The notes under the pieces are model-generated. The model saw only the letters and a list, made by a program, of their open reading frames with translations. It did not search any database and was not told where the DNA came from. The position numbers and the translations under genes were made by a program. From NCBI GenBank assembly GCA_038841535.1, contig JAWBTQ010000003.1, forward strand, positions 32,001 to 96,000: a stretch of DNA of 64,000 bases, given 5' to 3'. Every line of letters starts with the position of its first letter. Position 1 is the first letter of the stretch. The DNA is from Sulfolobales archaeon (GTDB lineage Archaea > Thermoproteota > Thermoprotei_A > Sulfolobales > NBVN01). Below, piece by piece: positions 9,318 to 60,568 of the stretch.

Positions 9318-9354
9318 GATCCCACTGTTGCTTGTTACACTACCTATAAAATTG

Positions 9355-10497: not shown

Positions 10498-10517
10498 AGT
10501 GTTTCACCTAACTCTGG

Positions 10518-11387: not shown

Positions 11388-11403
11388 CTTAAGGCACCTC
11401 AGA

Positions 11404-12111
11404 CTAATGCTGAGATTCTTCCACGATCACTACGGGTATAGGTACTTGAGACTGTGCTGGAACCTGTGCTTGAGGTGGTGTAGCCTTTATCTGCGGCTCC
11501 ACTGGTTCTGCTTCTAGCTTTGACAGCAACTCTAGGTGCTTCTCAACGTCTTTCCTCTCATCTAAACACTTGTTCTTAGCGTTTCTCATGAAGTCCATTG
11601 ATGCTTTGTATGACTGCTCACTAATCTCGTTGCTCATATACAGTACGTAAACGTTAGCTATGGCTCTCTCATACCTAATAACTTGGTCATCAAGCTCGTT
11701 TATCTTACCCTTAAGTACTTCCCTCAGCTTACCTGATTCGTCCTTTATCTTCTTGAACTCCGCTTCAAGCCTCTTTCTCATTTCTTCATACGCGTGCGTG
11801 GGTATCATGCCCTTCCTATTTAGCTCCTCAAGGGACCTTATTCTCTTTTTAACTCTATCTAACCTGTTTTCAACGTCTATAGCGACAACCTTCCACTCAG
11901 GAAGTACTATCAGTGCGTCTGGGGCCCTCATTATCCTATTCGCTTCAACTTTGACGAGCTCGTAGTCGTTGATAGCTATCTCTACCGCCTCAACATTCCC
12001 AGATACATCAGCAAATACGGCAATCAACTTACCCAAGCTTCTACCGTACTCATCCCTAACTACTTGACCTAGGAACTTCTCTACTTGATCTAGGGTGACC
12101 ATTCCCAGCAC
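11404..12111 (-). CDS. cdvA: Cell division protein CdvA
   Basis: PRC-barrel start (GQVVRDEYGR), PEWK, coiled coil, C-terminal PIPVVIV strand. Confidence 0.93.
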   Translation of the reverse strand: MLGMVTLDQVEKFLGQVVRDEYGRSLGKLIAVFADVSGNVEAVEIAINDYELVKVEANRIMRAPDALIVLPEWKVVAIDVENRLDRVKKRIRSLEELNRKGMIPTHAYEEMRKRLEAEFKKIKDESGKLREVLKGKINELDDQVIRYERAIANVYVLYMSNEISEQSYKASMDFMRNAKNKCLDERKDVEKHLELLSKLEAEPVEPQIKATPPQAQVPAQSQVPIPVVIVEESQH

Positions 12112-12181
12112 CGCAAAGCTATTCTCAAAGGCTACGTTATTTAAAAAACCGAGGCTTCTTTATGTCTATCTACTGCTGGTG

Positions 12182-13360
12182 CTATAAAGCCTGAGGCTCT
12201 GGAATCTCTTTAAGTTGGTTGAGAACGTAGTTCCGAATCTCGGATGGGGTGGGGTAGTCCCTGACTAACACTCCGTTTTCTAGCCACTTCAGTAGAATGT
12301 CTTCTAAGCACCTTGAAGGTCTTTCATCCCATAGAGTGACCTCGTAGTCTAAAACTCCACATCTATAAACCTTCTTAGCACCTGGCATTTTGCCTCTCTT
12401 AGCTATTGGTCTCCAAGCGCCATCGCGATAAACTTCAACTATGTCCATGCTAATATCAACCGGTTGTGGGAAAGCAATAGAGGTGCCGACACCAAATATG
12501 TCCACCGTATCTCTTAGTTCAACTATAGATCTCTCGTTTACACCACCACTAACAACTATTTTTATGCTAGGATGCCCTAAAGCCTTGAGAGTCCATCTGA
12601 TCTCCTCCACTATTTCCCTCATATCTCCGCGCCTACTTCTCGGAGTATCAAGCCTGACACCATATAAACGGTTGCCTAAGGCCTCAATAGCTTGAAGAGT
12701 TTCGACCCTTTCATCATTGAACGTGTCGACGAGCATTATCCTCGGTACTTCTGGTTCAATAACTTCATCGAAGGCCTTCCAAGACGCAACGTTATCTCCA
12801 AAAACTACTACGAGGGCGTGCGGCATCGTCCCAACAGGGTTCACCCCTAGGTACTCACGACTAAAGTCCCCAGATACGGCGTCAGCCCCACCTACGAATA
12901 CAGCTCTATCTACAGCGGGAGCTATTGCTGGGTGAAGAGCTCTTAAACCAAAGAAAACGACTCTTTTATCTGAAGCTAGTTTTTTCACCCTGGCTGCTTT
13001 AGTGGCTATGGAAGTGGTGTGCCTTAAAACCCCAAGAACGGCTGTTTCATACAGACACATATCAGCGTAAGAACCCTCTATGAGCATTACCGGGGTGTTT
13101 GATCTAACTAGAGTTCCTTCGGGAATAGAGTAAACGTTTAAGGGCTTACCCTGCAATATCTTCAGAGCCTCCTCTAGGCCTGAGTAAACAGCCCACTCGT
13201 AGCCTCTAGGAAGATCAGAGACGTGAACCTCCATTCTGACCCTAACCTTATCTAACCCCTTAGCCTCCAAGATCCTCTTAGTCCTAGTGAAGTATACGTC
13301 CGTAATCTTACCGCTGATGATCTCGTCTTCGCTAGCTACATATAGCCTCGGTCTATTCAT
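12182..13360 (-). CDS. pncB: Nicotinate phosphoribosyltransferase
   Basis: TDVYF, FGLR, GTMPH, VRLDTP, SGG, GVGT. Confidence 0.93.
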   Translation of the reverse strand: MNRPRLYVASEDEIISGKITDVYFTRTKRILEAKGLDKVRVRMEVHVSDLPRGYEWAVYSGLEEALKILQGKPLNVYSIPEGTLVRSNTPVMLIEGSYADMCLYETAVLGVLRHTTSIATKAARVKKLASDKRVVFFGLRALHPAIAPAVDRAVFVGGADAVSGDFSREYLGVNPVGTMPHALVVVFGDNVASWKAFDEVIEPEVPRIMLVDTFNDERVETLQAIEALGNRLYGVRLDTPRSRRGDMREIVEEIRWTLKALGHPSIKIVVSGGVNERSIVELRDTVDIFGVGTSIAFPQPVDISMDIVEVYRDGAWRPIAKRGKMPGAKKVYRCGVLDYEVTLWDERPSRCLEDILLKWLENGVLVRDYPTPSEIRNYVLNQLKEIPEPQAL

Positions 13361-16584: not shown

Positions 16585-16661
<77 letters not shown>

Positions 16662-16857: not shown

Positions 16858-18495
16858 TTGATGTATATATCTGAAGTGATAACTGCGGTCGCTATAGTGG
16901 TTCTAAACATAGTTATTGGAGTATCCTTTAGTGCCCCTGGTTTAATCACGACCCACTACTTACCTCTGGTACCGTTTATAGTCGCAGTGTGCGGTTTTCT
17001 TGCTAGTAAGTTGAGGAACGCTCTGATAGTCCTCATCGAGGCTTTACTCATTGTAGTAGTCGTAGCGATGTACTCTCGCTTTGAGCTCCTTGTATCGTAC
17101 CTGTTTTCGTATGTTCTCGGCTTCGCTATAGGCTTATTAAGAAGAAAGAGTCCTCTAGATTTCAGGTTGTGGACTCCAGCTAACTATTACCACACCGTGT
17201 TCTCGCTAGGGTTCTCTCTAGTAGGTGCCGGTATTGTCGGACTATCAGGGATCCCTCTCGAAACTCCTGCAGGCGCCCTCATCAGGAGGGGGGCATCAGC
17301 CGAGACCCTAGTTTTTACTATCGCAGTCTACGTAGTTCAAGCTTACGTATCCTCAGCAGCACCTAGTGCTAGCTTGATGGTGTTGGCTTTACTATCGCTG
17401 CTTTCACCATATACTCTTCCGATATTAGCCGTTCTCCCTTATTTAGGTGGTGCTACCCGAGTATATCTCAAAAACCGCTTCTTGAAGGTGGGTAAGGTAG
17501 TTGAAGTCGTCAAGGGAGTTAGAGCTAGAGAGCTTCTAATCCCATTTGAGAGAGGACTTAATAGGAATATTGTTATCGTTGGTGCTACTGGCACAGGCAA
17601 ATCCACTCTAGCGAAGCATTTAGTTAACCAGGTTAGGGCTCTGGGTATACCTGTCGTCGTCTTCGACGTGCACGGCGAGCACTGCAGTGAATGTGAAGAA
17701 TGTGAGTGTGTTGATGCTACTGAGCTATCTGTAGACATATTCCGAATATACGAAGAGGATCCTAAGACTCGGGCAGAGTTTGTAGCTGACGCTATATCGG
17801 AAATATACTCTCTTGGAAACCTTCAGAGGATAGCTCTCTCTAAGGCTTTATCGCATGTGTATGGAATCGCTCATGGAGGTTTAGGATTCGACTACCTTCT
17901 CGAATACCTTTGGAGGGCTTCTTACGGAGAGGTAGACCTCGGAGTCCCTCAAACCGTTGTTCGCTCTCTCATACCCTATTTAGAGAAATTGAAGAGCGTC
18001 TTTAAAACCAGTGGTAAAAGCATAGTAGAATTCGTGAATACTGTAACAATAGTCGACTACTCAAAATTGAGTAGCGGAGTAGCTACGATAATATCTGAGA
18101 TAGCTACCGACGAACTCTACCATACATTCAAAGACCTTAATAGAGAGTTCGTTCTAGTTGTGGATGAGGCACACAGATTCTTGAGAAAGGGAAGGGCTCT
18201 ATCGAGGTTATTCAGAGAAGGTAGAAAGTACGGTATATCATCGATCCTGATAACACAGGATGTTATCAGCATCCCGAGAGAACTACTCCTAAATACTGCG
18301 GCACTAATCTCGTTTTCTGTACCTGAGGTCTCTACAGCACGATACATAGCAAAAATAATCTCTCCTGGTGACACAAATCTTTACGAAAAAATCCTCAGCA
18401 AGCTTACATCCCTACCTCAATTCTACGCTCTTACATCAATACCCGGTATGGGGTCTTACATCATTGAGACTCAAAAACCGTACTTTACGCAATAG
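16858..18495 (+). CDS. Multi-TM membrane-anchored HerA/FtsK/VirD4-like ATPase (possible CedD-like DNA transfer ATPase)
   Basis: About 200-aa hydrophobic N-terminus; GATGTGKS, FDVHGE, LVVDEAH, REGRKYG, ITQ. Confidence 0.75.
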   Translation: MMYISEVITAVAIVVLNIVIGVSFSAPGLITTHYLPLVPFIVAVCGFLASKLRNALIVLIEALLIVVVVAMYSRFELLVSYLFSYVLGFAIGLLRRKSPLDFRLWTPANYYHTVFSLGFSLVGAGIVGLSGIPLETPAGALIRRGASAETLVFTIAVYVVQAYVSSAAPSASLMVLALLSLLSPYTLPILAVLPYLGGATRVYLKNRFLKVGKVVEVVKGVRARELLIPFERGLNRNIVIVGATGTGKSTLAKHLVNQVRALGIPVVVFDVHGEHCSECEECECVDATELSVDIFRIYEEDPKTRAEFVADAISEIYSLGNLQRIALSKALSHVYGIAHGGLGFDYLLEYLWRASYGEVDLGVPQTVVRSLIPYLEKLKSVFKTSGKSIVEFVNTVTIVDYSKLSSGVATIISEIATDELYHTFKDLNREFVLVVDEAHRFLRKGRALSRLFREGRKYGISSILITQDVISIPRELLLNTAALISFSVPEVSTARYIAKIISPGDTNLYEKILSKLTSLPQFYALTSIPGMGSYIIETQKPYFTQ

Positions 18496-24785: not shown

Positions 24786-24822
24786 CGAATAGAGGGTCGA
24801 GCATTATAAGTAGAACAAGCAG

Positions 24823-24912
24823 TGGGCCCGCGGGGATTTGAACCCCGGACCACCCGGTCTCCCATCACGCTTAATATGAGCCGGGCGCTCTGCCTGGCTG
24901 AGCTACGGGCCC
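24823..24912 (-). tRNA. tRNA-Ile2(CAT) with 16-nt intron at 37/38 (24859-24874)
   Basis: GGGCCCG acceptor and discriminator A (Ile-type); CCCGG-CT-CAT-A[intron]A-CCGGG; BHB-like CTCA/TGGG with AGA bulge. Confidence 0.85.
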
Positions 24913-31345: not shown

Positions 31346-31471
31346 GGGCCCGTAGCTCAGCCAGGCAGAGCGGCGGACCAAGGGCCGAGGCTCCAGTCCG
31401 GGTCTTAGGACCGTATGGGATGACTTGGAGAGACCCGTAGGTCGGGGGTTCAAGTCCCCCCGGGCCCACCA
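31346..31471 (+). tRNA. tRNA-Trp(CCA) with two introns: 13 nt at 30/31 (31377-31389) and 36 nt at 37/38 (31397-31432)
   Basis: Removing both yields GCGGG-CT-CCA-GA-CCCGT; GGGCCCG/CGGGCCC acceptor, ACCA end; BHB-type motifs at both junctions. Confidence 0.88.
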
Positions 31472-33483: not shown

Positions 33484-33750
33484 GTGGTGAGACCAGCCCT
33501 CAGATCGAGGTCTCCAAAGAGGGTATCCAGAAGGACCCCAAGTGGTAAGTCTAAGGTATTTTATGGGAGAAGAGATTCATATAATGCTTACTGCCCATTA
33601 TGCGGCAAGCCTTTAGGAGGAGTTCCAAAGAGCCTTAAAGAAGTAAGACTCGGATTCAAGTCGCGTAAGAGACCTGAGAGACCCTATGCTGGGATGCTTT
33701 GTCCCTTGTGTCTAGCACTAGCATACAAGGTAGCGGTACGTAGTATGTAA
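33484..33750 (+). CDS. rpl34e: 50S ribosomal protein L34e
   Basis: RP.LRSRS, RTPSG, CPLCG.PL.GVP, RPERPY.G.LC..C. Confidence 0.96.
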   Translation: MVRPALRSRSPKRVSRRTPSGKSKVFYGRRDSYNAYCPLCGKPLGGVPKSLKEVRLGFKSRKRPERPYAGMLCPLCLALAYKVAVRSM

Positions 33751-33758
33751 GCTAGGCG

Positions 33759-34346
33759 GTGGTTTTGGTAGATCTTTGCGAAGCTGGTTTTGTTGTTGCT
33801 ATTAGTGGAAAACCAGGAAGTGGAAAGACTACACTAGCTAAAAACATAGCTAGAGAGCTTAACCTAAGATACGTCTCCATGGGGCAGATCTTTAGGAATA
33901 TAGCTGCTGAGAGGATGATCAGCTTAGAAGAGCTTAGTAAAGTAGCTGAGGAGGATCCAAGCATAGACTACCTCATCGACAGTACGGCTATAGAAGAAGC
34001 TAAAAGAGGTTGTGTCGTCCTAGACGGACATTTAACGGGATGGATCCTTAAGGATATAGCGCACATAAAGATACTTACATACGCCCCACTTCAAGTCAGG
34101 GCAGAGAGATTAGCAAAACGAGATGGAAAAACTGTTGAGGAAGCTCTACACGAAATTAAAGTGAGGGAAAACTCCGAAGTTCGGAGGTACAAGAAGTACT
34201 ATGAAATCGATGTAAGCAACTTAGACGTGTTTGACATTATACTCAACACGTCTTTGTTAAGTGAGGAAGAAGCAGCTAGAGTGGCTACTGAAGTAATTAA
34301 GATTCTAGCCCCATTAAAATTTAAGAAAGAAGAGAAGAAGATATAA
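33759..34346 (+). CDS. cmk: Cytidylate kinase (archaeal type)
   Basis: ISGKPGSGKTT, G.IFR, DGHL.GW, RY...Y.ID; follows L34e. Confidence 0.93.
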   Translation: MVLVDLCEAGFVVAISGKPGSGKTTLAKNIARELNLRYVSMGQIFRNIAAERMISLEELSKVAEEDPSIDYLIDSTAIEEAKRGCVVLDGHLTGWILKDIAHIKILTYAPLQVRAERLAKRDGKTVEEALHEIKVRENSEVRRYKKYYEIDVSNLDVFDIILNTSLLSEEEAARVATEVIKILAPLKFKKEEKKI

Positions 34347-34354
34347 AGGAAGTA

Positions 34355-34439
34355 GCCGGGGTGCCCGAGCGGTCTAAGGGGCCGGCCTTGAGAGCCGGTG
34401 GGTTAGGCGCCCGCGCGGGTTCGAATCCCGCCCCCGGCG
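34355..34439 (+). tRNA. tRNA-Ser(TGA)
   Basis: GCCGGGG/CCCCGGC; CCGGC-CT-TGA-GA-GCCGG; long variable arm. Confidence 0.96.
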
Positions 34440-34838
34440 CCTCGCAGAACTGTTTTGGGTTTTATACTGGTTCATAGTGTTTGTTGCTATTCTTCTGCTA
34501 TTATTACGTATAGCGGAGTCTTATCCTCTCCTTGTCTTTCCTGTGCGTGTGAAACTGGACTAAACACGTGTGGAGACGATATTAGCTGCTTAAGAGAGCG
34601 TTAAAAGATGACGATATCTTAATAAGCTACTAGGGTATGAGACTTGTGGTATGGTACTTTTCCAAAAGCATGGAGTTCCTGTTCGCCGTCTTTGTCTGTT
34701 TTACTCCTGAAATAAGATAGGGAGCGTAGTCTTCTGGAGAGTGAGGGATGTCCGTATTTGGATTAGTTCTTATAAACATCTTTCAGCTCAAGTAAAAAGT
34801 GCGGTGGGAGTATTAAGAAGGGTAGGCTCGTTGTTTTC

Positions 34839-35045
34839 GTGAGTTACGGTCCCAGGTCTCAGCAGAATATTAGAAAGCTTAGTCTGATGATGGAGAAACT
34901 TAAGGAGTACTTCGAGATATCCTTAATTCACGTACCAGATGATGTGGCTGATGATTTGCCTTATATTAGAATAGAGCCACTCGATGGTGCAGAGATTCCG
35001 CTTAGAGAAGTAGATTTAATGCGCGAGCTTGAGAGTAAAGTTTAA
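34839..35045 (+). CDS. Small hypothetical protein (may start at ATT 34812)
   Basis: ORF abutting the Lrp gene; GGTGGG motif upstream of ATT. Confidence 0.5.
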   Translation: MSYGPRSQQNIRKLSLMMEKLKEYFEISLIHVPDDVADDLPYIRIEPLDGAEIPLREVDLMRELESKV

Positions 35046-35342
35046 ATGCTTACCTCTCCCTTTGTATTTGGTGCTAGAATGTCTGAAGGTTCGGCTACAG
35101 CAATAGTGCTACTGAATACCGATATAGGGTCGGAGGATGAAGTACTAGAGCAGCTATCAAGAATAGATGGGGTTATAGAAGCTAGTGTAGTTTATGGAGT
35201 CTACGACGTTGTAGTTAAGGTTAGAGCAAAAACGATCGAAGAACTTAAAGAAATAATTACAAATAGAATCAGAAAGCTATCGAAGGTTAAGTCTACTTTA
35301 ACTATGATCGTTGTAGAGGGTAAAACCTTCGAGAAGAAGTAG
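35046..35342 (+). CDS. Stand-alone Lrp/AsnC ligand-binding (RAM) domain protein
   Basis: V.E..VVYG.YD.VVKV, IR....V.ST.T. Confidence 0.9.
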   Translation: MLTSPFVFGARMSEGSATAIVLLNTDIGSEDEVLEQLSRIDGVIEASVVYGVYDVVVKVRAKTIEELKEIITNRIRKLSKVKSTLTMIVVEGKTFEKK

Positions 35343-43820: not shown

Positions 43821-44136
43821 CCGGTGCCGGCTATAACCCGCCTTCCGTACTACGGTAGCATTAGACTATGCGGCCTACCCGCACCTCGCACGGCAATTCA
43901 TCGGTGCTGCTCGGCCTTGCTCCCGGAGGGGCGGCCGTTTCAGCGCATCCACCCCCATACTCAGCGGGTTGCTGGCACCCCGTTACCGGAGTGCCCTCAC
44001 CACCTCATAGACATCTGGAGGCGGCCGTACCGTTTCTGTGCCGTTGCCGCGGGTCTCCCCGCGCTCCTTGCGGAGCCTCCGTGCCGTGTGGAGGGCGGTG
44101 TTTCCTCAGTTCCCCGTAGCTACCAGCCGGCTCCGG
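43821..44136 (-). ncRNA. rnpB: Ribonuclease P RNA
   Basis: Minus strand: GAGGAAACACCGCCC (CR I), GCAACGGCACAGAAAC, GCTGAAACGGC, GGAGCAAG, GAAGGCGGGTTAT (CR V); GC-rich, P1 ends pair. Confidence 0.92.
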
Positions 44137-51144: not shown

Positions 51145-51324
51145 ATGACCAAAAAGCCCCCAGTTAAGGTTAAGGATCCACACACAGGACAAGAGCTGGA
51201 GTTAGTTCCTGAAAAGATATGGACACTAGCTCCCAAAGGGAGAAAAGGAGTTAAAATAGGACTCTTCAAGAGCCCGACAGGGAAGTACTTTAGAGCAAAA
51301 GTTCCGGAGGACTATCCGGCGTAA
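51145..51324 (+). CDS. cren7: Chromatin protein Cren7 (59 aa; below ORF-track cutoff)
   Basis: [49 protein letters not shown]. Confidence 0.97.
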
Positions 51325-51671: not shown

Positions 51672-51748
51672 TGGCGCCGGGGGGAGGACTCGAACCTCCG
51701 ACCACCGGGTTAACAGCCCGGCGCTCTACCTGGCTGAGCTACCCCGGC
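51672..51748 (-). tRNA. tRNA-Asn(GTT), CCA encoded
   Basis: GCCGGGG/CCCCGGC; CCGGG-CT-GTT-AA-CCCGG. Confidence 0.97.
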
Positions 51749-51811: not shown

Positions 51812-53530
51812 TTAGTGCTCTAGCTTAATTAGTAAGGCCCTAGGATCTGGGGCTATTCTCACTATGGCATAGCCTCTACCAAGAGCTCTTGCTTTTTCAA
51901 TGCGTTCGCTACTGGCTTTGAGTAGCTTACTAATCTCTTCCCAGTACTCAGTGCTTGTTGATGGCAGAACTACGAGTAGGCCTAGGTTGTCTATTAGAGG
52001 TCCCAAAGTTCTGGTAAAGTCTCTTGCTGTTTGAGTAGCTAAAGCTACTACAGTCCCGAAACTCCTTCCCACTCTTATTAATTCCTCTACTAATTCTAGT
52101 GAACTCTCTCTAAGTATAGTCCACGCTTCGTCGACTACGATTACCCTACTGTAATCGGTTCTCTCAGGATGACTTATTGACGCGGTTTTCATCGCAACTG
52201 ATATGACCTTAAGTAGTAAGGGCATGAGTGATGGATCAATAGATAAGATAGATGAAACGTCTAATACGTTTACCCCAGCAGGCTCTTTAAGTAAGCTAAT
52301 CAATCCACGCCCACTACCAGAAACGGCGGCAAGTACGGATAGAACCTTACTAATGACGAATTCTGGGTATTCCTCTGAGCAGTACCTAGAGAATCTTCTT
52401 AGGGAGTTTACGAGCTCTATGTCTCCTCCTTCAGGAATTGCAGTGAGGTTGCTTAAGGCTACGTGAAGACACGAAAAAACATCCCTTCTGTTGAGTTCTC
52501 GGTGAGATGACATTACGTCTAGTAGCACTTCTGCTAAGTCTCTATTGAGGTTTTTGCGAACTGCTTTAAGTAATTCTACCAGCCCTATTGAAACATTTCT
52601 TCCTAGAGTATAGTATGCGACCTTTTTACCGTGAGACTCAAAGATCTTTTTATACTCGTTTTTCGGATCGAGTACGAGTATTCCAAGACCGACCCTATTT
52701 AGAGATAGAGCTAGTCCAGCAAGGAAAGTGGTCTTTCCGATACCAGTTGGCCCTACTACAAGTACGTGTGGAGATGCTGCTTCATTAAGGTTCCAGTAGA
52801 CTTCTTCTCCACTATCAAGATCTACTCCTAGCTTTATTCCGGAAGACCTTAGGGAAGGTTTTGCCCTCCCCAACAAAGGAATAAACGTAAACACCGGGAT
52901 AGAGATCAAGTCTGCTACTATGGTCTTCCTCCTAAGTCTGTCTGCAACCCTATAGAGCAGGCCGCGCTTTTGCCTGGATAGTCCGGCAAGTAGCATTCTA
53001 GAAAAAGCTTTCTCAGCATCAACTTCTTCTATGTCTACGCCCAACGTGTTCAGCGTACTCCTTAAGACCCTCATCCTAGTTTTTAATACCTCGAGGGAGC
53101 TTTGGAAGTCTTCACCGCAAGCCGAGACCGCAACATAGACTTCGGTCTCAAATGGCTGTAGAGAGTCCTTGAGAATCCTGCTTCTTATATACTTAGCTCT
53201 CTCAGCCTTTATCCTGCTATCAGCTTTAAGTGGATTGACTTCGTAAGCAACGGTGTTCTCAGCTATAATTCTTTCGAGGTTCTTTGCGAAAGCGAGTCTA
53301 TCAACGGGTTTAATGAAGGTGTGAAACTCTAAGGGAAAACCTAGGTTGAACGCATTAACGTAAGCCTTTATGTACTTTACTGAGGTGAAGTCGTCGAGAT
53401 CCTGTATAGCTGTACTTACGTTTGTTACTTTAGTAACTCTCTTAACACACACTCCTGAACTCTCACTATAGACCAAAAGTCCGTCTCTAAGCTCGTAAGT
53501 CTCGTGCTCCATAAGCTGTTTCCCCCACAT
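51812..53530 (-). CDS. VirB4-like ATPase (CedB-like, no N-terminal TM helix)
   Basis: VirB4-type N-terminal domain (DLDD...P...PFETEVYVAV...L..LGV); GPTGIGKT, LDPKNEY, VVDEAW, R.GRSFG, ATQ. Confidence 0.78.
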   Translation of the reverse strand: MWGKQLMEHETYELRDGLLVYSESSGVCVKRVTKVTNVSTAIQDLDDFTSVKYIKAYVNAFNLGFPLEFHTFIKPVDRLAFAKNLERIIAENTVAYEVNPLKADSRIKAERAKYIRSRILKDSLQPFETEVYVAVSACGEDFQSSLEVLKTRMRVLRSTLNTLGVDIEEVDAEKAFSRMLLAGLSRQKRGLLYRVADRLRRKTIVADLISIPVFTFIPLLGRAKPSLRSSGIKLGVDLDSGEEVYWNLNEAASPHVLVVGPTGIGKTTFLAGLALSLNRVGLGILVLDPKNEYKKIFESHGKKVAYYTLGRNVSIGLVELLKAVRKNLNRDLAEVLLDVMSSHRELNRRDVFSCLHVALSNLTAIPEGGDIELVNSLRRFSRYCSEEYPEFVISKVLSVLAAVSGSGRGLISLLKEPAGVNVLDVSSILSIDPSLMPLLLKVISVAMKTASISHPERTDYSRVIVVDEAWTILRESSLELVEELIRVGRSFGTVVALATQTARDFTRTLGPLIDNLGLLVVLPSTSTEYWEEISKLLKASSERIEKARALGRGYAIVRIAPDPRALLIKLEH

Positions 53531-55568
53531 GATATCCCACTGACAAAGCCGCCTTTAGTGCTAACCAGACCACGTCTCTCCAGTCTAGGGCAACTCTACT
53601 AGTACCCAAGCTGACCGAGAACCCAGTCACTAAGTATATTGGCTCAAGCTTTTGTTCAAATACTTTTCTGCCATCCAAATAAATCGCGAGCACGTAATCA
53701 CCTTCGTGCTCAATTTTCACATACAACCTCTTGCTTGTAGCTACTTCGTACTTTATACAATCAGCGTAGAATCCTCCACTAGCTGCCCTATCTGAGTAAG
53801 CACCATAGAAACACTTTCGAATAGAGTCTCTAAATACTTTAGATGAATTTAACTCGAAGCTTTCATCATCTACTCTTATTACCTTAGTGAGCTCTAGCAG
53901 AGCTGGTTCCTCACAGTTTTCTACGAGAAGATAGTCGTATCCTTCAAACACGTTTCTGTTCAAGCAGAGCAACTTTAAGGAATGTCCTGGTGCCTTAATT
54001 ACACTTTTAGACTTGGTTTCAAACACTTCTATTCTCTCACTGTAGTCTCTTTCAACATCCTTAAACTCCCGAGGGTCTAGGTATACAGTAGCTATTTCTT
54101 CGGGATCAAATAACTCCGAGTTAACTACCAGCTTAACGAGTACTTCGTTCTTCTCCGAACACTTCCCAGAGAACTTTATGGAGACATCGTTTAAGCCGGG
54201 TTTAATGGTGTTGCTGCTGAGAACAACACTGCTTTCACTAACTCCAGATACTTCCGCCTTAATCGGTACCGGTATCGGAACACGACTAGTAATTTTTAGA
54301 TTAATTCGGCCAAGGCAATTATGGTTTACGTTACTCAGAAGTTTCCCGGACTTAGCTATAGCAAGAGATTTACTGACTACGTTATCTAACTCGAGCTTAC
54401 CGAACTTGACGTATTCTTCGACAGCCCTGTAGTACGTTGGGCACTCTACTGTGACTTTTAAGTATCCTTCCCACCCCAGGGTCTTCGGATATATCAATGC
54501 GCGAAGAACTCCGGCGACAACGCTCTGTTCCCAAACCGCGGTGAATCTTGGTGAAACAGAGAAGCGACACCCATCGAACCAGGGCTTGACAACGAGTTCA
54601 GCCAATCCCTCTCCACTACCTTCATTGCGAACTTTGACCTCCACCTCAGCAGGAGCTAGAGGATCTAGAAAAGTAACTAAGTCTTCAGTGAGGCAAGCAA
54701 CACCACTAGTGGTAGATACGCACGACCTAAGCAGGGGTGAGTCAAGTGCGAAGGAGACTCTATCATTCAAGATCTTAACGAGACCAGCACGGTTTACTAT
54801 CGAGACTACGTCCTTAAAGGAAGACACCTCCTTAACTGCCTCCTTTAAGACCGTAGTGTACGCACCGTACTTCACGACCTTAAGTCCCTCTCGGTCAGCA
54901 AGGACAATTCCGTCACTAACACATGCTGCTGAGACGACCTCACTCACCTTCCCGAGAACGTCGAGAACGCCGTTTCTCACTCTAACTAAAAACCCGTCGC
55001 GGTCAATTAGGTAATCACCAGTTGGACAGCTCACGATGAACCTGAAAAACCCAGGTATTAGCTCAATACCGTTGATCGATACTGAAAGTGTCAGCGACTT
55101 ATTACTAACGGAGAACCCCCCGAAGCCCGCGTTTATACCTAGACTTCGTATCTCGCGAGGATCTAGCCTCACTGAGTCTATTCCGTATATTCTAGTTACA
55201 CCGTCTACTACATCTAGTATTCCAGTTAAGCACTTACTCCTTTTACACGCTACTAAGTATATCATCGTTCCTAGCGTTCTAATGAAACCACTGCCCCGAA
55301 ATACTCTACCTCCAGCACTCAGTACCAGCTCCGAGTTTTCACGCTTGATCACTATATCTCTCAGCTTAAGTTCCGAAGCAGAGACGTCTAGAGATGCCGC
55401 TCGAATAGGTTCTCGACTTAGAACATAGAGATAGTAGTTATTGCCACTAAGAATCTTTAGTACTGGTTTACCTAGAGTGCTCCTAGTTAACTCTACTTCA
55501 TTTACGTCACTTAGTTCATCGAAGACTTTGTTTAGTCTTATTACACCGGTTACTGAAGGAACTATCAC
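53487..55568 (-). CDS. 693-aa beta-rich protein of unknown function in the pilus operon
   Basis: Long ORF overlapping both neighbours; short beta-strand repeats then Ig-like segments; no signal peptide seen. Confidence 0.75.
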   Translation of the reverse strand: MIVPSVTGVIRLNKVFDELSDVNEVELTRSTLGKPVLKILSGNNYYLYVLSREPIRAASLDVSASELKLRDIVIKRENSELVLSAGGRVFRGSGFIRTLGTMIYLVACKRSKCLTGILDVVDGVTRIYGIDSVRLDPREIRSLGINAGFGGFSVSNKSLTLSVSINGIELIPGFFRFIVSCPTGDYLIDRDGFLVRVRNGVLDVLGKVSEVVSAACVSDGIVLADREGLKVVKYGAYTTVLKEAVKEVSSFKDVVSIVNRAGLVKILNDRVSFALDSPLLRSCVSTTSGVACLTEDLVTFLDPLAPAEVEVKVRNEGSGEGLAELVVKPWFDGCRFSVSPRFTAVWEQSVVAGVLRALIYPKTLGWEGYLKVTVECPTYYRAVEEYVKFGKLELDNVVSKSLAIAKSGKLLSNVNHNCLGRINLKITSRVPIPVPIKAEVSGVSESSVVLSSNTIKPGLNDVSIKFSGKCSEKNEVLVKLVVNSELFDPEEIATVYLDPREFKDVERDYSERIEVFETKSKSVIKAPGHSLKLLCLNRNVFEGYDYLLVENCEEPALLELTKVIRVDDESFELNSSKVFRDSIRKCFYGAYSDRAASGGFYADCIKYEVATSKRLYVKIEHEGDYVLAIYLDGRKVFEQKLEPIYLVTGFSVSLGTSRVALDWRDVVWLALKAALSVGYHVGETAYGARDLRA

Positions 55569-56995
55569 GGCGTAACACCTAGCGCGTAGAGCTCTAGTAG
55601 TACTAACCCCACTAGAGCGGTATTTTCCAGGGTGCCAAATGTAGTAAGAGTAGCGATAACACTATAGAAAAGTGATGATATAAAGCAGTAGGTCCTTATT
55701 TCACCACTTGCTAGACCTGTTGCTGCCACTAGAGAGGTTGAGAAGCTCAAAATAAGTGGTAGAAAGAGTGCTGTAGCTATCACTAGGAGTCTAACAGCAA
55801 TACTCTGCTTAACGAGAGAGAATAGTTCCTCGACTATGTCCTTAAATGCTATTATTCTAGTTGTATCTACACTTCCGTGCCTGATGGACCTTAAAAGCAT
55901 GTAGTAGCAGAGTGAGGTAAAGACGCTGCGGCTACGTAGATCGCCCAGACTCTTTTCTACTAGCTCTATAGGGCGGTGAGCATAAGGCACTCTATCTGCT
56001 AAGCTGATAAGCTGAGATGGTATAGATACGACTGATAGATAGGTAGCAACAAACCTTTGAGTTGCTACAGCCCCTAGAGCGAGGAACGTTGCTCCTGAAA
56101 ATACTAGTGAAGTCTTCACTCCAATCATCGGGGATAGTAAAAAGGGTAAAAATGCGGTAGTAAGTAAGTACCTAAGTTTTTTAGTTTCTACAGATATCTT
56201 CAATAGCCTGGGTGTTGCACTCTCAGATATGGCTAACGCAATTGCGGGTGCGGCCATAGTAATATAGGTGTACTGTACTTCGGAGCCAGTTAAAGCAATG
56301 ACTAGAGCTATCAGTGGGGGAGTCAAGCCGTTAAATACAGCAGCAGTCAAACTCAGGATAGTCTTAAGCTCTAGAGAGTTTTTTGCTGAAGTTTTAAGCT
56401 CGCGGAGAGACTCCTGAAACTTACTGTATATCCATGTACCAAAGTCGGCACTTTCGCGAGTCACTATGTACTCTAGCAGCAGCTTCCTCATCGGTTTCGG
56501 GGCTCTAAGCACGTACTCCTTGATACCCTTTATCCCGGGAAAGAACTTGAAGAATAGCTTGAGTCTCATGTACTCGTTACACATCGATGGCAGGAACCCG
56601 CAGGCATGCTCCGATTCTTCTTCTAGATCCCTCACTAAGTCATCACCGGGGCTCGCACCCTCCAGTACCATGAAGTAAGCTATGTCTTCCCGCAGGCTTT
56701 TCACGTAAGTAGCGTAGTACAGAAGCTCTACGGCTAGAGGTAGTAGAAAGAGCATAGACGCCGCAACGGGGATAGTAAAGAAGAAAAAGTAGGGGTTGTT
56801 TGAATGTTTTGAGGCAATATACGAGGCCAGCGCCAATCCAAGTGTGGGTACCGCAGATACTTTGAGTATATATAGAACTGCCTTATCAGCCTCAGCTTTG
56901 GGTTTTCCTCTAGCTATTCTCACTTTGTTTAGTAGCTCTAAGTATTCACCTAGAGCTCGACTAATATGAAGGATGGGCGAGCTACTTAAACCCAT
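55565..56995 (-). CDS. Type IV pilus membrane platform protein (TadC/ArlJ/UpsF-like)
   Basis: Alternating TM clusters and cytoplasmic helical domains; directly follows the assembly ATPase. Confidence 0.72.
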   Translation of the reverse strand: MGLSSSPILHISRALGEYLELLNKVRIARGKPKAEADKAVLYILKVSAVPTLGLALASYIASKHSNNPYFFFFTIPVAASMLFLLPLAVELLYYATYVKSLREDIAYFMVLEGASPGDDLVRDLEEESEHACGFLPSMCNEYMRLKLFFKFFPGIKGIKEYVLRAPKPMRKLLLEYIVTRESADFGTWIYSKFQESLRELKTSAKNSLELKTILSLTAAVFNGLTPPLIALVIALTGSEVQYTYITMAAPAIALAISESATPRLLKISVETKKLRYLLTTAFLPFLLSPMIGVKTSLVFSGATFLALGAVATQRFVATYLSVVSIPSQLISLADRVPYAHRPIELVEKSLGDLRSRSVFTSLCYYMLLRSIRHGSVDTTRIIAFKDIVEELFSLVKQSIAVRLLVIATALFLPLILSFSTSLVAATGLASGEIRTYCFISSLFYSVIATLTTFGTLENTALVGLVLLELYALGVTP

Positions 56996-59499
56996 AGGTC
57001 TCTCGCTCTATTAAACCTCGTAAGAAGAGTCTCTAAGTCTAGGTCTTCCCCATATCTATAGACGGTATTAAGGACTAGAGAATTTGACCTCAGTACAGGT
57101 TCGTCGACTCTAACAACCACCCTCCTCAAGCCGCCGTCCTCTAGAAAACTTAGAGTGATAAACAACCAGATCATGGCAAGCTGTTGAGGTGCTAACTCTA
57201 TGGGGGGTGAAGTAAGTCTTACGATGGCTTCCTCGGGTGAGCCGGCATGGAACGTCGTATTATGGGTCAGTATCAAAGACCCGGAGATAGCGTAAAGGTG
57301 GGTTCCAGGTACTTCAACATCGTATAATAGGCTCTGTTTTTCGATGAAGTCCACTCTTTTAACTTTGAGCATACTCAGCTCGCTTTCCTTGCGACTTACT
57401 GTAGCCGGGAAGAGGTTCTCGTAGCTGTAGTGCTTTAATCCTAGTACTCTGAGAAGATTTTCTCTATCTTTCTCCTCTACAATGCAGATTTCGTATTTTT
57501 CTTCAGTACCTGGCTTGGGTGGCTCAATATACGATCGCACACCGAGAGTCTTAAGTACTAGGACTAGAGACTCAGCAAACTTTCTGCTCGGTGCGTACAT
57601 CTTAAAGGTTGCGTAACTCTCGTAGTCTAAACTTACTTTATCGCTTAAACCGTCGCAGTACCCTTCAATTAGGCCTACTCTGAACTCATTTCCGGACTCA
57701 AGGGCTATACCTAAAGGCACGTGCTTCATCTCAGCCTTTGAACTACCTGAAACGCCGACAAGCAGGACAGCTAGTGGCCGGTATTCTACGGTGACGTGAG
57801 TAACGCCCTTAGGCAAAGATCTAACGGTATTTACGACCTCGGAAGGAATACCTAGACTTGCTAGAGCCTCAAGTAGCTTAGTCAGCTTAGTTGATTCAAC
57901 ATCGAGGTGCACTAGCCAGGTGTTTCTTGTGAGATCTTTCTCCACGTAACCGGTCGCTAAGTATAGCCCAAGAACGTAACCCAGATTTCTATCTAGTTTA
58001 AACCGTTTAGATAGCTCCAATGATCCGGGCAACCGATTCACGCGTCTATCAGTCAGCTCAGATCTTCCTTCTGTGAACAACCCCGGATGGTGAAGGCCTT
58101 CAGTCACGTTTAGATCTTCATCTACAATTTCTGGCACCTCTATGAAGTCCCTTTCTTGAGTTGGCTTAGGGGGGTGAGGAAGAGATACGAGTAGATCTCC
58201 GGGGTTAAGGTCCTTAGCTTTCTTGAGAGTTAGACCTAAGTCGGTATCTGCTGCTACTACTAAATGATCTTCATGAACTTCATGTGTTACTCCATTCTCG
58301 ACTTCTATTCTGACGAACTTGTTGCTACCTCTCTTTGCGACTACTGCCGATACTGGCTGCCAGGTAGGTTCTAGATCGGCTCCGAGAGACACTACCTCGA
58401 CTCTCTTATGGCTACCCTTTAGTACCCCGTTCACTACCTCCCTGATCTCGTAAAGGCCGATCTTTCCGTCGATTTTAGCCAGCACTAGTTGATCTCCTGG
58501 AAGGCAGAGACCTCCTAGACCCATGTTCATTGCTTGAACTAGGACTCTAGCTTCAGCTCCTCTGGTTTCACCTATAACTAAGAATCTGCTGACAGACGCT
58601 CTTAACGCAGCTTTAGCTAAAGCCATCTGGTCTATCCCTCTAGTAGAACCCCAGACGTCAGTTGGAACAGCATACCTAACCCAGCTGGAGCCCTTAGGTA
58701 CGTCTACCTCTGGGGTGTCCTCGATTATCGCTATTTTCCAATACCTAGGAATAGCTGAGTAAAGTATGGCCTTAAGTAAGGTAGTCTTACCAGAACCCGG
58801 TGGTCCAAGAATAACTATAGATCCTCCCTTTCTAACGACGAGCTTTATTAGCTCAGCTACAGAGCTCGGCATTACTTTGGCCTTAACTAGGGCATCGAGG
58901 TCTACAAAGCCGTGATAAAGCTTTTTCCTAATGACTAGTTCTCCGGTTGAATGAGCAACATCAGGTAGAACCAAGTGTACTCTATGACCACCGTCTTCCT
59001 CAGGTAAAGTAAAGTCCATTATTGGTATTCTCCTGTTGACTACCCTCCCAGAACGCTCAGCAGCAAGCTCCATATAGCTCACTAGTTCTTCGTAAGTAGC
59101 TACAACTATGTTGGTTTCAATGTAATCTGCTGATGGATCCTTCTCAAGTACGTACTTGTGTCTAACCCATACAGGACCCGTGCCAACGATCGATACGTCC
59201 TCTACGTAGGGGTCGTCTAAGAGCACCTGAAGCTTCTTATACTTGAGCTCCCGACTTACTACGTATGTAACGAGTTCTGGGTCGTAGTCCTTGAGGTATG
59301 TGAGTACTGCTTTAGCGACATCATAAATACTTACACTTTTCTGAGGGCCTACGAACTCTAGAGCTTTACCTACTAGTCTGGCTATAGTTTCATATTTTTC
59401 TGGGTCGATATCGTTAACTAGGTAGTAGTAGTTTCCGGAAAGGTCTTTGACTATACTAATAGAAGAAAGTCCTACGTTATAGCTAAGTAAAACCTCCAA
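56986..59499 (-). CDS. Type IV pilus assembly ATPase (VirB11/TadA family) containing an intein
   Basis: DDPYVEDVS, IRK, GPPGSGKTT, IEDTPE, IGETRG.EA, TFHA; 416-aa insert. Confidence 0.92.
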   Translation of the reverse strand: MEVLLSYNVGLSSISIVKDLSGNYYYLVNDIDPEKYETIARLVGKALEFVGPQKSVSIYDVAKAVLTYLKDYDPELVTYVVSRELKYKKLQVLLDDPYVEDVSIVGTGPVWVRHKYVLEKDPSADYIETNIVVATYEELVSYMELAAERSGRVVNRRIPIMDFTLPEEDGGHRVHLVLPDVAHSTGELVIRKKLYHGFVDLDALVKAKVMPSSVAELIKLVVRKGGSIVILGPPGSGKTTLLKAILYSAIPRYWKIAIIEDTPEVDVPKGSSWVRYAVPTDVWGSTRGIDQMALAKAALRASVSRFLVIGETRGAEARVLVQAMNMGLGGLCLPGDQLVLAKIDGKIGLYEIREVVNGVLKGSHKRVEVVSLGADLEPTWQPVSAVVAKRGSNKFVRIEVENGVTHEVHEDHLVVAADTDLGLTLKKAKDLNPGDLLVSLPHPPKPTQERDFIEVPEIVDEDLNVTEGLHHPGLFTEGRSELTDRRVNRLPGSLELSKRFKLDRNLGYVLGLYLATGYVEKDLTRNTWLVHLDVESTKLTKLLEALASLGIPSEVVNTVRSLPKGVTHVTVEYRPLAVLLVGVSGSSKAEMKHVPLGIALESGNEFRVGLIEGYCDGLSDKVSLDYESYATFKMYAPSRKFAESLVLVLKTLGVRSYIEPPKPGTEEKYEICIVEEKDRENLLRVLGLKHYSYENLFPATVSRKESELSMLKVKRVDFIEKQSLLYDVEVPGTHLYAISGSLILTHNTTFHAGSPEEAIVRLTSPPIELAPQQLAMIWLFITLSFLEDGGLRRVVVRVDEPVLRSNSLVLNTVYRYGEDLDLETLLTRFNRARDLWV
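57259..58506 (-). mobile_element. Intein (residues 332-747, 416 aa) with degenerate LAGLIDADG domain
   Basis: GGL|CLPGD start, block B His (VHEDH), block F LYDVEV, end THN|T; LGLYLATG and IEGYCDGL motifs. Confidence 0.93.
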
Positions 59500-59537
59500 T
59501 GAAAAACACCTTGAGTATTTCGAGTTAGAGAACTTGT

Positions 59538-59987
59538 TTACCCTAAGTTTATCGGTATTTCTATCTGTTTATTAGTGGCTACCTCACTCGCTACTACTAT
59601 AAGACCCCTGACTCTAGTAGTCCCACTAGAAACAGCTATAACGAAGATCTTTTCACTACCTGGCTCTAGGGTCACCTGCTCATTACTTAACGCATTGCGT
59701 GCCTCGACTACGGTTCCATTTGTTAATATAGCCTTAAACTCAGTCACTTTGTATGATGTCTGACCTTGGTTTCGTAGACCGACCGTGATAACTTCTTCAC
59801 CGTTAGTGTAGGTTCTGCTGACTAGATACCCACTAAGAGGCTGAACTATGTTCATGTTTTCAAGACTTCCCGCTCTACTGGACAACCAGCCTTGGACCAC
59901 CATTACTATAGGGATCACTATAGCAACCAAGGCTAGTATAATCACCAACTCACTTATTCCCCTCCTCAACTTTTTACGTACCAACAT
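59538..59987 (-). CDS. Type IV pilin with class III signal peptide (probable start ATG 59987)
   Basis: MLVRKKLRRG|ISELVIILALVAIVIPIV; Ig-like C domain (LRNQG, LEPG.E); TTTTTAAG box about 25 nt upstream. Confidence 0.85.
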   Translation of the reverse strand: MLVRKKLRRGISELVIILALVAIVIPIVMVVQGWLSSRAGSLENMNIVQPLSGYLVSRTYTNGEEVITVGLRNQGQTSYKVTEFKAILTNGTVVEARNALSNEQVTLEPGSEKIFVIAVSSGTTRVRGLIVVASEVATNKQIEIPINLG

Positions 59988-60259
59988 GTCGGCTCCCAAT
60001 AGGAAACCTCCTTAAAAAGTGTCTCAGCACCGATCAGTATTAGCCTTCGTCTATAATATCCTAATAATAGGGCGGTACTAACAGGGCCTGTAACCAGGTT
60101 GATTCACATAGACAATCAAGAGGTAGATATTGACATAAATACTGATTCCCCCTATTCTATTATTCTCCATAGATTAGATTGTCTCGACGGTAGATGCGAT
60201 ACCTGATTGATCTTACTACTTAAAAGTATGCCGTATTTAAAGGTAACTAAGGGTCTGAC

Positions 60260-60568
60260 ATGAATAGGGTTAAAAAACTGTTAGATAGCATGTACGCAAA
60301 GCTTTTCACTCCTGGAGATATAGTGGCAGCTACAGGATTACCTAGGTACGAAGTTCTTGCTGCTTTACACGTCCTAGAAGAACTCGGAATTATAGAGCTC
60401 GTGATATCTAAAGGAAACTATAAGGTGTATCGGCTAACTAAACTCGGTGAGAAGCTGTATAAAGCTCTTGAGTTAAGCGAAAGCCCCCTACTGAGTGTAG
60501 AGCTTAGTGCAGGAGCTCCTCAAGGAGAAAACAGCTCCGCGAGCTTAGTAACAGAAAGTAGTAGCTGA
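60260..60568 (+). CDS. Winged helix-turn-helix protein, divergent from the pilus operon
   Basis: TPGDIVAATGLPRYEV...L..LEE.G.I...KVYRLT..G. Confidence 0.85.
   Translation: MNRVKKLLDSMYAKLFTPGDIVAATGLPRYEVLAALHVLEELGIIELVISKGNYKVYRLTKLGEKLYKALELSESPLLSVELSAGAPQGENSSASLVTESSS

Follow-up and report, generated by a model that had tools for sequence, protein, structure and literature searches.

A resident archaeal operon combining type IV pilus genes, an UpsX-like protein gene and a CedB-type ATPase gene

Five overlapping genes and their products

We analysed a 64,000-nucleotide stretch of DNA from an uncultured archaeon (contig JAWBTQ010000003.1, positions 32,001 to 96,000; hereafter the window), in which five co-oriented open reading frames (ORFs) on the minus strand, spanning positions 51812–59999, place the genes of a type IV pilus next to that of a relative of the DNA-import ATPase CedB. 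A first-pass annotation, made from the sequence alone, had described this arrangement, and our ORF listing of the window confirmed it: in the order of transcription, a pilin (gene 1, 59538–59999; ORF of 153 amino acids (aa)) is followed by a FlaI/TadA/VirB11-type assembly ATPase (gene 2, 56986–59499, 837 aa), a platform protein (gene 3, 55565–56995, 476 aa), an UpsX-like protein (gene 4, 53487–55568, 693 aa) and the CedB-type ATPase (gene 5, 51812–53530, 572 aa). The first two genes are separated by a 38-bp gap, and at each of the next three junctions the genes overlap (10, 4 and 44 bp in turn); the 44-bp overlap would shrink to 26 bp if the CedB-like protein starts at its seventh codon, where the orthologues begin. 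The host is an uncultured hot-spring archaeon of the Desulfurococcales/Sulfolobales lineage, outside the Sulfolobaceae, and is represented by a genome of 1.56 Mb in 40 contigs (84% complete); its relatives are uncultured genomes named 'Desulfurococcaceae archaeon', 'Desulfurococcales archaeon' or 'Sulfolobales archaeon', together with Zestosphaera tikiterensis. DNA of the stretch was detected in hot-spring metagenomes of seven studies, several of which are possibly its source.

The surroundings of the five genes are those of a chromosome. A tRNA-Asn gene (51672–51748) lies 63 bp downstream of the last gene, and we found neither a direct repeat pairing it with the opposite end of the cluster nor any att-like repeat, while the flanking ORFs include no integrase-like ORF and no relaxase and the GC content is even along the window, so that none of the marks by which integrated conjugative elements are recognised (atypical composition, att repeats, an integrase or relaxase) was found at the locus. 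The flanking genes, putatively identified by reading their translations by eye, encode an aspartyl-tRNA-synthetase-like protein, an Lhr-type helicase, L40e, Cren7 and ABCE1; synteny with housekeeping genes is kept across genera, in which Cren7 and an SSO5209-family gene recur beside the operon. Because of these recurring housekeeping flanks, the even GC content and the lack of an att-like repeat, the locus is resident chromosomal DNA and not mobile, as had been proposed in the first-pass annotation, and we regard it as practically certain that the operon is real, resident and conserved.

The last gene was compared with curated protein families. Its best match in NCBIfam is CedB (NF041017; E 6.6e-51, 173.6 bits, versus 38 bits on the VirB4_CagE model), with residues 10–571 aligning to positions 59–587 of the 590-position profile, and the product combines a VirB4-like N-domain with a HerA/VirB4 ATPase domain in which the Walker A (GPTGIGKT) and Walker B (VVDEAW) motifs are intact, both being kept in 17 of 17 aligned orthologues. 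No other strong CedB match is present in the genome. Gene 5 has no N-terminal hydrophobic segment, and positions 1–58 of the CedB profile are unmatched; it is in this region that canonical CedBs, where checked, carry one or two predicted N-terminal transmembrane (TM) segments, and the operon-linked CedBs have no such predicted segment. The membrane anchor of CedB has been lost in this lineage. Such an anchor is not universal in CedB, since a passage that cites earlier work implies that the protein lacks a TM domain in some organisms (PMC11823120; this and the other papers are cited for the parts of their text that were available).

A careful maximum-likelihood tree of 36 rows separated the CedB family from CedD and from VirB4/VirD4-like rows (those of locus L104 included) at 97/96, and placed the gene 5 product (P0005) in a clade supported at 100/98 that also holds Sulfolobaceae CedB. 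This clade is made up of the pilus-linked CedBs of the host's family (f1) and of a further family (f3), the Ignisphaera type, the split type of Desulfurococcaceae archaeon AG1 and the stand-alone CedBs of Sulfolobaceae, the latter two being joined at 94/91; CedBs whose genes are linked to cedA form a clade at 95/89. The gene tree broadly follows the grouping into genera and families. Many long branches were flagged, and the deep joins of the tree therefore need caution; despite these branches P0005 is bracketed by accepted CedBs. The DNA-import role of Sulfolobus CedB is established (PMC11823120). The likeness to CedB and the missing anchor, both of which had been noted in the first-pass annotation, are thus borne out by family match, clade and N-terminus, and gene 5 is very probably a CedB orthologue.

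Gene 4, immediately upstream, matches no Pfam or NCBIfam family, and a word-index search with it returned 10 close relatives, all of them 'hypothetical' where named. The AlphaFold2 (AF2) model of the protein (pLDDT 87.2) is all-beta, with an N-terminal seven-bladed beta-propeller (residues 1–309) that precedes beta-sandwich domains and a C-terminal helix. In a VIA structure comparison, residues 1–309 resembled propellers of the WD40, integrin and RCC1 kinds at Z scores of about 12; a Foldseek search with the model of the whole protein returned generic WD40/DDB1-type propellers alone (TM score about 0.2), and the ESM Atlas yielded neither a usable match nor a model of the protein. Since no signal peptide or TM segment was found in any of 29 orthologues (29/29), the protein is predicted to be cytoplasmic. 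When a 29-row alignment of the family was compared with a 5-row alignment of UpsX, hhalign reported a probability of 91.2% (E 9.8e-7) over 475 collinear columns that run to the C-terminal helix. Two control comparisons, of UpsX with the CedB alignment and of the 693-aa family with a 591-aa protein of the same genome, gave 0.08% and 0.15%, respectively; the 591-aa protein is presumed to contain a propeller and to be S9-peptidase-like, a label that comes from reading by eye. The gene, which had been described beforehand as UpsX-sized, thus appears from profile comparison to be remotely homologous to UpsX and not merely similar in size. UpsX itself is predicted to be cytoplasmic; its deletion leaves pili and aggregation in place and reduces ultraviolet (UV)-induced DNA transfer to about half, and about 35% of the protein moves to the membrane after UV treatment (PMC3892339).

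Gene 3 encodes a polytopic membrane protein in which HMMER detected no Pfam T2SSF match in any of 21 family members (21/21); the family's hidden Markov model (HMM) picks up a bona fide T2SSF protein at 2e-8. Nothing relevant was returned when the profile was run against PDB sequences. By hhalign, the profile matches the protein at the UpsF position of the Stygiolobus ups locus with a probability of 90.6% (E 1.3e-6, 383 columns), the same comparison giving 13% for the genome's other platform protein. In the AF2 model (pLDDT 81.9), the cytoplasmic domain at residues 96–203 superposes on the PilC N-domain (2whn_B) with Z 8.1 and an rmsd of 3.0 over 100 of 103 residues; Foldseek with the model found no match at E <= 0.001, and in a wide structure ranking with VIA unrelated helical bundles stood above PilC and EpsF, for which reason the evidence from fold alone is weak. 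Gene 3 is taken to be a divergent, UpsF-like platform of the PilC/TadC/FlaJ type, and we consider it probable that genes 3 and 4 are UpsF-like and UpsX-like, respectively.

The Stygiolobus ups locus used in these comparisons encodes, in order, proteins of 676, 470, 508, 143 and 139 aa, which fits the published order upsX-upsE-upsF-upsA-upsB (PMC11868833), and the 676-aa product shares 55% identity with one that carries the name UpsX at NCBI.

The remaining two genes complete the pilus set, and both had been named correctly at first pass. Gene 2 is a type IV filament (T4F) secretion ATPase by its match to Pfam T2SSE (PF00437; 47.4 bits, cut-off 24.9), and it also matches the NCBIfam models FlaI (E 2e-37) and BasE (E 1.9e-28), with scores that stay under the cut-offs of those families. 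It further matches Pfam Intein_splicing and LAGLIDADG_3, owing to an intein that the first-pass annotation had not mentioned: 416 residues with a LAGLIDADG endonuclease domain (residues 332–747; 57259..58506, minus strand), with ends CLPGDQ...LILTHN and Thr at +1, inserted directly before the conserved TTFHAG box. In an alignment with an orthologue that has no intein, residues 1–332 and 748–831 of gene 2 are covered. The ATPase measures 826–842 aa in seven of eight loci of the same genus (in the eighth, L026, the ORF called has 753 aa), 887 aa in genome G015 (locus L038) and 421–450 aa in other genera.

Gene 1 encodes a protein with a single N-terminal hydrophobic helix after a basic stretch ending in RRG|ISE, the class III pilin pattern; its likely start is the ATG at 59987, with predicted cleavage at RRG|ISELV. 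The pattern of a basic stretch, G-[VIL]S[DE]L and a hydrophobic helix is kept in 13 of 13 aligned orthologues, and a prepilin peptidase gene is present on contig C6 of the genome (Peptidase_A24, 34.2 bits, cut-off 26.5), so that the genome holds both a pilin with a class III signal and the peptidase for a T4F. A TATA-like box, TTTTTAAG, was recognised by eye at 60011..60018 on the minus strand, about 24–31 nt upstream of the ATG; this position would give a leaderless or short-leader transcript.

Distribution of the operon and the rest of the Ced system

We located 45 loci by means of the CedB-like alignment and read their gene order with family HMMs. All five genes stand in the same order in 33 of these, L084 of Zestosphaera tikiterensis among them. 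The other 12 comprise four contigs that are cut short yet have the 693-aa gene beside cedB, three contigs of less than 3 kb, two Sulfolobaceae loci, one Vulcanisaeta locus and two loci without pilus genes (from an Ignisphaera sp. and from a Thermoprotei metagenome-assembled genome). Among the loci of the relatives fetched first, BLAST found the five genes in order in 16 of 20; of the remaining four, three run into the end of a contig, and one (L042) does have its platform and large genes in place, which BLAST missed. The two sets share many contigs and the relatives share ancestry, so the counts are not independent. Because the five-gene order recurs in 33/45 and 16/20 loci, the arrangement lies far beyond chance; linkage of the ATPase gene to pilus genes in relatives, on which the first-pass annotation had staked its reading in advance, was thereby found. 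The 693-aa gene and the CedB-like gene overlap in nearly all loci.

A search of 41 genomes, of which 24 belong to f1, found the CedB-like gene in 38 (22/24 of f1) and cedA likewise in 38 (23/24 of f1). The 693-aa family is narrower, being present in 25 of the 41 (22/24 of f1, 1/1 of f3 and 1/2 of f6) and not found in the other families, and each full-length match adjoins a CedB-like gene. Both cedA and the CedB-like gene are present in 22 f1 genomes, and in none of these do the two stand side by side. The families in which the search returned no 693-aa homologue include f2, f5, f7, f9 and f12, and these have cedB next to cedA, in the order cedA1-cedA-cedA2-cedB in f2, f5 and f7 and as cedA-cedB pairs in f9 and f12. 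Desulfurococcaceae archaeon AG1 and its kin (L078, L080, L081) have the same operon with cedB split into a gene for an N-domain of about 116 aa and one for an ATPase of about 398 aa, both inside the five-gene pilus operon, and their large protein aligns with the 693-aa family at 97.8%.

One f1 genome departs from this pattern as a whole: in G019, which is 99% complete, cedA, the CedB-like gene and the 693-aa gene all went unmatched, and a related ATPase and platform are kept. In its locus L118 (contig C27, 7.2 kb), these two genes are followed by genes for a 322-aa protein with an IS1-type zinc domain and an 867-aa VirD4/CedD-like ATPase, with a 99-aa two-helix ORF on the opposite strand, which may represent replacement by another transfer system or a mobile element. 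A different neighbourhood was seen in L101 (genome G035, 6829–12616): after the gene of a 1322-aa protein come two genes whose products, of 125 and 608 aa, have pilin-like N-termini, and directly downstream of these lie a cedA-like gene and a cedB that encodes an anchored protein.

According to the first-pass annotation, neither cedA nor a VirB2-like pilin was to be seen in the window, and the CedB-like ATPase might accordingly dock on the pilus platform or on the ATPase at 16.9 kb; a lack of cedA is not borne out by the genome as a whole. We drew profiles of cedA and cedA1 from canonical cedA-cedB loci of other families, which adjoin ribosomal protein genes and encode a two-helix protein of about 90 aa, a polytopic protein of about 485 aa, mostly a protein of about 60 aa, and an anchored CedB. 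Three NCBIfam models tried as models of CedA (NF041016, NF041018, NF053654) proved to be unrelated families. The small two-helix protein alignment matches PDB chain 8dfu_B at E 1.9e-30; since 8DFU is the A. pernix CedA1 pilus (PMC9905601), the ~90-aa and ~485-aa proteins are identified as CedA1 and CedA. With these profiles, adjacent genes for cedA1 (91 aa, E 1.9e-36) and cedA (448 aa, E 1.2e-44) were found in the genome of the window (G000) on contig C4, at about 33559–35185 (L112 12560–14186). No cedB follows them on this contig, and no cedA2 was identified. CedB thus co-occurs in the genome with both cedA and cedA1.

The cedA1-cedA pair lies about 6 kb from a second, simple pilus locus with an ATPase (538 aa), a T2SSF platform (590 aa) and a pilin (167 aa), and this neighbourhood adjoins RFC and Orc1/Cdc6 genes.

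The window itself holds a further candidate component, a membrane-anchored ATPase of 545 aa (16858..18495, plus strand), encoded directly after a tRNA-Thr gene (16585–16661) and 34 kb from the operon. Its best family is NCBIfam CedD (NF053655; E 2.3e-20, 72.8 bits, below the cut-off of 600), and its sequence begins with about 200 residues of TM helices, after which the ATPase domain follows. Orthologues lie at a similar distance from the operon in genomes G002 and G007, and the CedD-like ATPase probably belongs to the same Ced system as a partner component.

Proposed coupling of cell contact and DNA uptake

The locus shares parts with several described systems and differs from each of them. 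With the Ced system known from Sulfolobales and Aeropyrum (CedA, CedA1, CedA2, CedB, CedD), it shares the CedB-family ATPase, along with the cedA1, cedA and CedD-like genes elsewhere in the genome, but here cedB stands apart from cedA, lacks the anchor, scores under the NCBIfam cut-off and closes an operon of type IV pilus genes. The Ups system (upsX-upsE-upsF-upsA-upsB) likewise has a class III pilin, a secretion ATPase, a platform to which gene 3 is similar and a large cytoplasmic protein, UpsX; unlike there, cedB is appended here and the host lies outside the Sulfolobaceae. T4F subsystem 4A (Makarova 2016; Sivabalasarma and Albers 2026) is also a Thermoproteota system with accessory genes downstream of the platform gene, but its descriptions name an adhesin and minor pilins, not a cytoplasmic UpsX-like protein and CedB. 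The Ted system of Thermoproteales and the bacterial VirB-type type IV secretion systems (T4SS) have in common with the locus a VirB4-superfamily ATPase tied to DNA transfer; here, however, the best model is CedB and not VirB4_CagE, and the operon has no VirB2/TedC-type gene.

The main text of the 2026 census of archaeal type IV filaments contains no occurrence of CedB, VirB4 or HerA, and places the Ups pili in subsystem 4I, exclusive to Sulfolobales (PMC13705601), and Ups-coding genes have been assumed to be absent from other Crenarchaea (PMC11868833). In the literature searched, with supplementary neighbourhood figures and tables outside its scope, we came across neither a pilus operon that carries cedB nor UpsX homologues from beyond the Sulfolobaceae. 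We therefore rate the locus, as far as that literature reaches, as a variant of known systems in which the components are known and the linkage of cedB to a pilus operon is undescribed.

In Sulfolobus, aggregation by Ups and import by Ced are needed together and are encoded apart, and we know of no function assigned to UpsX since 2013. The resident operon brings together the genes for a type IV pilus set, for an UpsX homologue and for the genome's sole CedB, and we propose one functional scheme for them. A single transcript would yield the pilus machine, the UpsX-like protein and CedB together, and the pilus would make cell-cell contact as Ups pili do in Sulfolobus, in which Ups pili aggregate cells and Ced imports DNA (PMC9905601, PMC11823120). 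The UpsX-like propeller protein would bring the anchor-less CedB hexamer to the membrane, either to a CedA/CedD channel or to the pilus platform, and CedB would then drive assembly of the Ced pilus and import of DNA for recombinational repair. The main argument for a direct relation between UpsX and CedB is that loss of the anchor, separation from cedA and adjacency to an UpsX-like gene coincide in the same lineages. We assign a probability of roughly 60% to this statement in its full mechanistic form, of which the part we are least sure of is that the UpsX-like protein acts as an adaptor.

The testable hypothesis on offer is that UpsX-type proteins recruit CedB. The family-wide operon, linking an UpsX homologue with an anchor-less CedB while cedA1 and cedA lie elsewhere, hints at how pilus contact and DNA uptake may be coupled, and extends Ups-like systems and UpsX beyond the Sulfolobaceae. 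The natural series of cedA-linked, pilus-linked, split and stand-alone cedB genes also makes it possible to trace how a type IV pilus and a conjugation system that had been domesticated began to act jointly.

A number of observations weigh against this proposal. That the UpsX-like protein may bind CedB is suggested by gene context; a complex prediction with the full 693-aa protein and CedB residues 1–230 scored 0.00 and gave no answer, neither for nor against binding. The score of gene 5 on the CedB profile lies far below the curated cut-off of 700 bits, and functional equivalence to CedB is for this reason not certified; in the same search of control genomes, one match of four was above the cut-off. 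The UpsX and UpsF homologies are built, at about 91% probability, on pairwise profile comparisons. With a single UpsX sequence in place of the alignment, hhalign gave the 693-aa family 23%, and HMMER with the 693-aa profile recovered no UpsX in two Sulfolobaceae genomes and nothing in Ignisphaera. The gene order is pilin-ATPase-platform-X-cedB and not that of ups, with one pilin instead of two. In a quick tree of 21 ATPases that included a single UpsE, the operon's ATPases formed one clade (93) and UpsE joined the remaining type IV pilus ATPases (84), so that UpsE is not recovered, in this sampling, as the specific sister of the operon's ATPase. By profile comparison the pilin is no closer to UpsA of Stygiolobus (57.7% in hhalign) than to the genome's other type IV pilus pilin (88.9%). 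The earlier description of the locus as an Ups-like module holds for its content, through the matches to UpsF and UpsX, does not hold for gene order, and is not supported for UpsE sisterhood or closeness to UpsA. On the whole, the earlier reading of such a module joined to a CedB-like motor stands in large part.

Two loci lack the pilus part altogether. L085 of an Ignisphaera sp. (7033–11537) and L098 of genome G027 (7541–12036) each hold an SSO5209-family gene, a gene for a protein of 806–831 aa and a split CedB, and no pilin, ATPase or platform genes were found beside the split CedB in either; the 831-aa neighbour of CedB in Ignisphaera gave 9% in hhalign against the 693-aa family, and a likeness to UpsX is not supported there. 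Regulation and transcription also tell against the scheme to some degree. The A(N)TTTC element that is a feature of UV-inducible Sulfolobus promoters (PMC5817253) was not visible by eye at -39 to -44 upstream of the pilin gene. In metatranscriptome X13, short contigs fell on the pilin, ATPase, platform, CedB and winged helix-turn-helix genes, thus on four of the five operon genes, at depth 4–11, and the 693-aa gene had next to no cover. Co-transcription is not demonstrated, because no X13 contig crosses a boundary between two operon genes, and carry-over of DNA is possible.

The best surviving alternative is one of co-regulation only: the operon would serve to make CedB along with a pilus for adhesion or aggregation, the sole working partners of CedB would be CedA, CedA1 and CedD, encoded elsewhere, and the UpsX-like protein would have another role, for example in DNA handling. 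Since cedA1 and cedA are present on contig C4, a normal Ced channel and Ced pilin exist, and the operon may merely co-express CedB with the pilus; the complete-looking Ced set elsewhere in the genome fits this. What it leaves unexplained are the coincidence, in the same lineages, of anchor loss, separation from cedA and an UpsX-like neighbour, and the overlap of genes 4 and 5 in nearly all loci, and we consider it possible but unlikely.

A bolder form of the coupling proposal holds that a single machine stood at the origin of both the Ups pilus and the Ced importer, that in this lineage the UpsX-like protein physically couples the anchor-less CedB hexamer to the platform so that contact and DNA translocation would proceed from one membrane complex, and that the Sulfolobaceae split an ancestral ups-cedB operon into separate, co-induced systems; if true, UpsX would gain a role as a docking factor for CedB. 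The bolder form is speculative and in our view doubtful. The fusion of pilus and VirB4-type motor into one combined machine, as the first-pass annotation had it, is not demonstrated, given cedA1 and cedA on contig C4.

It is improbable that the CedB-type ATPase was instead co-opted by the type IV pilus to serve as its second motor, for example in extracting pilin or in retraction, with loss of its role in DNA transfer. The gene does belong to a pilus operon, and its product is without the anchor by which canonical CedB is held at the membrane; to our knowledge archaea lack PilT, the basis for the idea of extraction or retraction. In bacterial conjugation systems, moreover, VirB4 ATPases drive pilus biogenesis (PMC11868833). 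Co-option would, however, leave the cedA1 and cedA of this genome without a motor, as it has no other CedB; and cedA, the CedB-like gene and the 693-aa gene are jointly unmatched in G019, where the pilus ATPase and platform are retained. The protein also falls in the 100/98 clade with the CedBs of Sulfolobaceae, and Sulfolobus CedB imports DNA (PMC11823120).

An adhesion or secretion pilus of subsystem 4A, with the 693-aa protein as a PilY-like adhesin (arCOG03511) and the ATPase as an incidental neighbour, is very improbable: in Thermoproteota the 4A loci do carry a propeller-type adhesin and, downstream of the platform, accessory genes (PMC13705601), and three to four untraceable extra components have been reported for Desulfurococcales loci (PMC4858521), but an extracellular adhesin is unlikely given 29 of 29 orthologues without signal peptide or TM segment, and adjacency to the ATPase is conserved, not incidental. 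To the idea of a remnant of an integrated conjugative element beside tRNA-Asn, prompted by that tRNA gene 63 bp away and by the VirB4-type ATPases typical of such elements, we attach next to no weight, in view of the missing att-like repeats, integrase and relaxase, the even GC content, the fact that other genera, too, have Cren7 and the SSO5209-family gene next to the operon, and a gene tree that follows genus and family grouping.

Neighbouring genes and other features of the window

Divergent from the operon, on the plus strand at 60260..60568, lies the gene of a small winged-helix-like protein of 102 aa, which matches NCBIfam SSO5209_fam (NF053658) with E 7.6e-23 and 80 bits, below the cut-off of 140. 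A homologue with the motif '...TPGDVV..TGLPRYEVLA...' adjoins the pilin gene on the opposite strand in L034, L039, L041 and L043, and an SSO5209-family gene is found at the equivalent place in L040, where the pilin ORF is masked in the ORF listing; such a gene also adjoins the large-protein/CedB pair of Ignisphaera. As a neighbour of the operon the SSO5209-family gene is conserved, and its product is a candidate regulator.

At the other end of the operon, the Cren7-like chromatin protein gene (51145–51324, plus strand; identity read from the translation) is a recurrent neighbour in several genera. In the metatranscriptome it had by far the highest depth, 188–236 versus 0–11 on the operon.

Three further RNA genes were noted in the window: an archaeal RNase P RNA (43822–44135, minus strand, 200 bits); a 91-nt tRNA, Asn(ATT) according to ARAGORN (24822–24912, minus strand); and a 123-nt tRNA recognised by Rfam match only (31346–31468, plus strand), both tRNA genes probably containing an intron.

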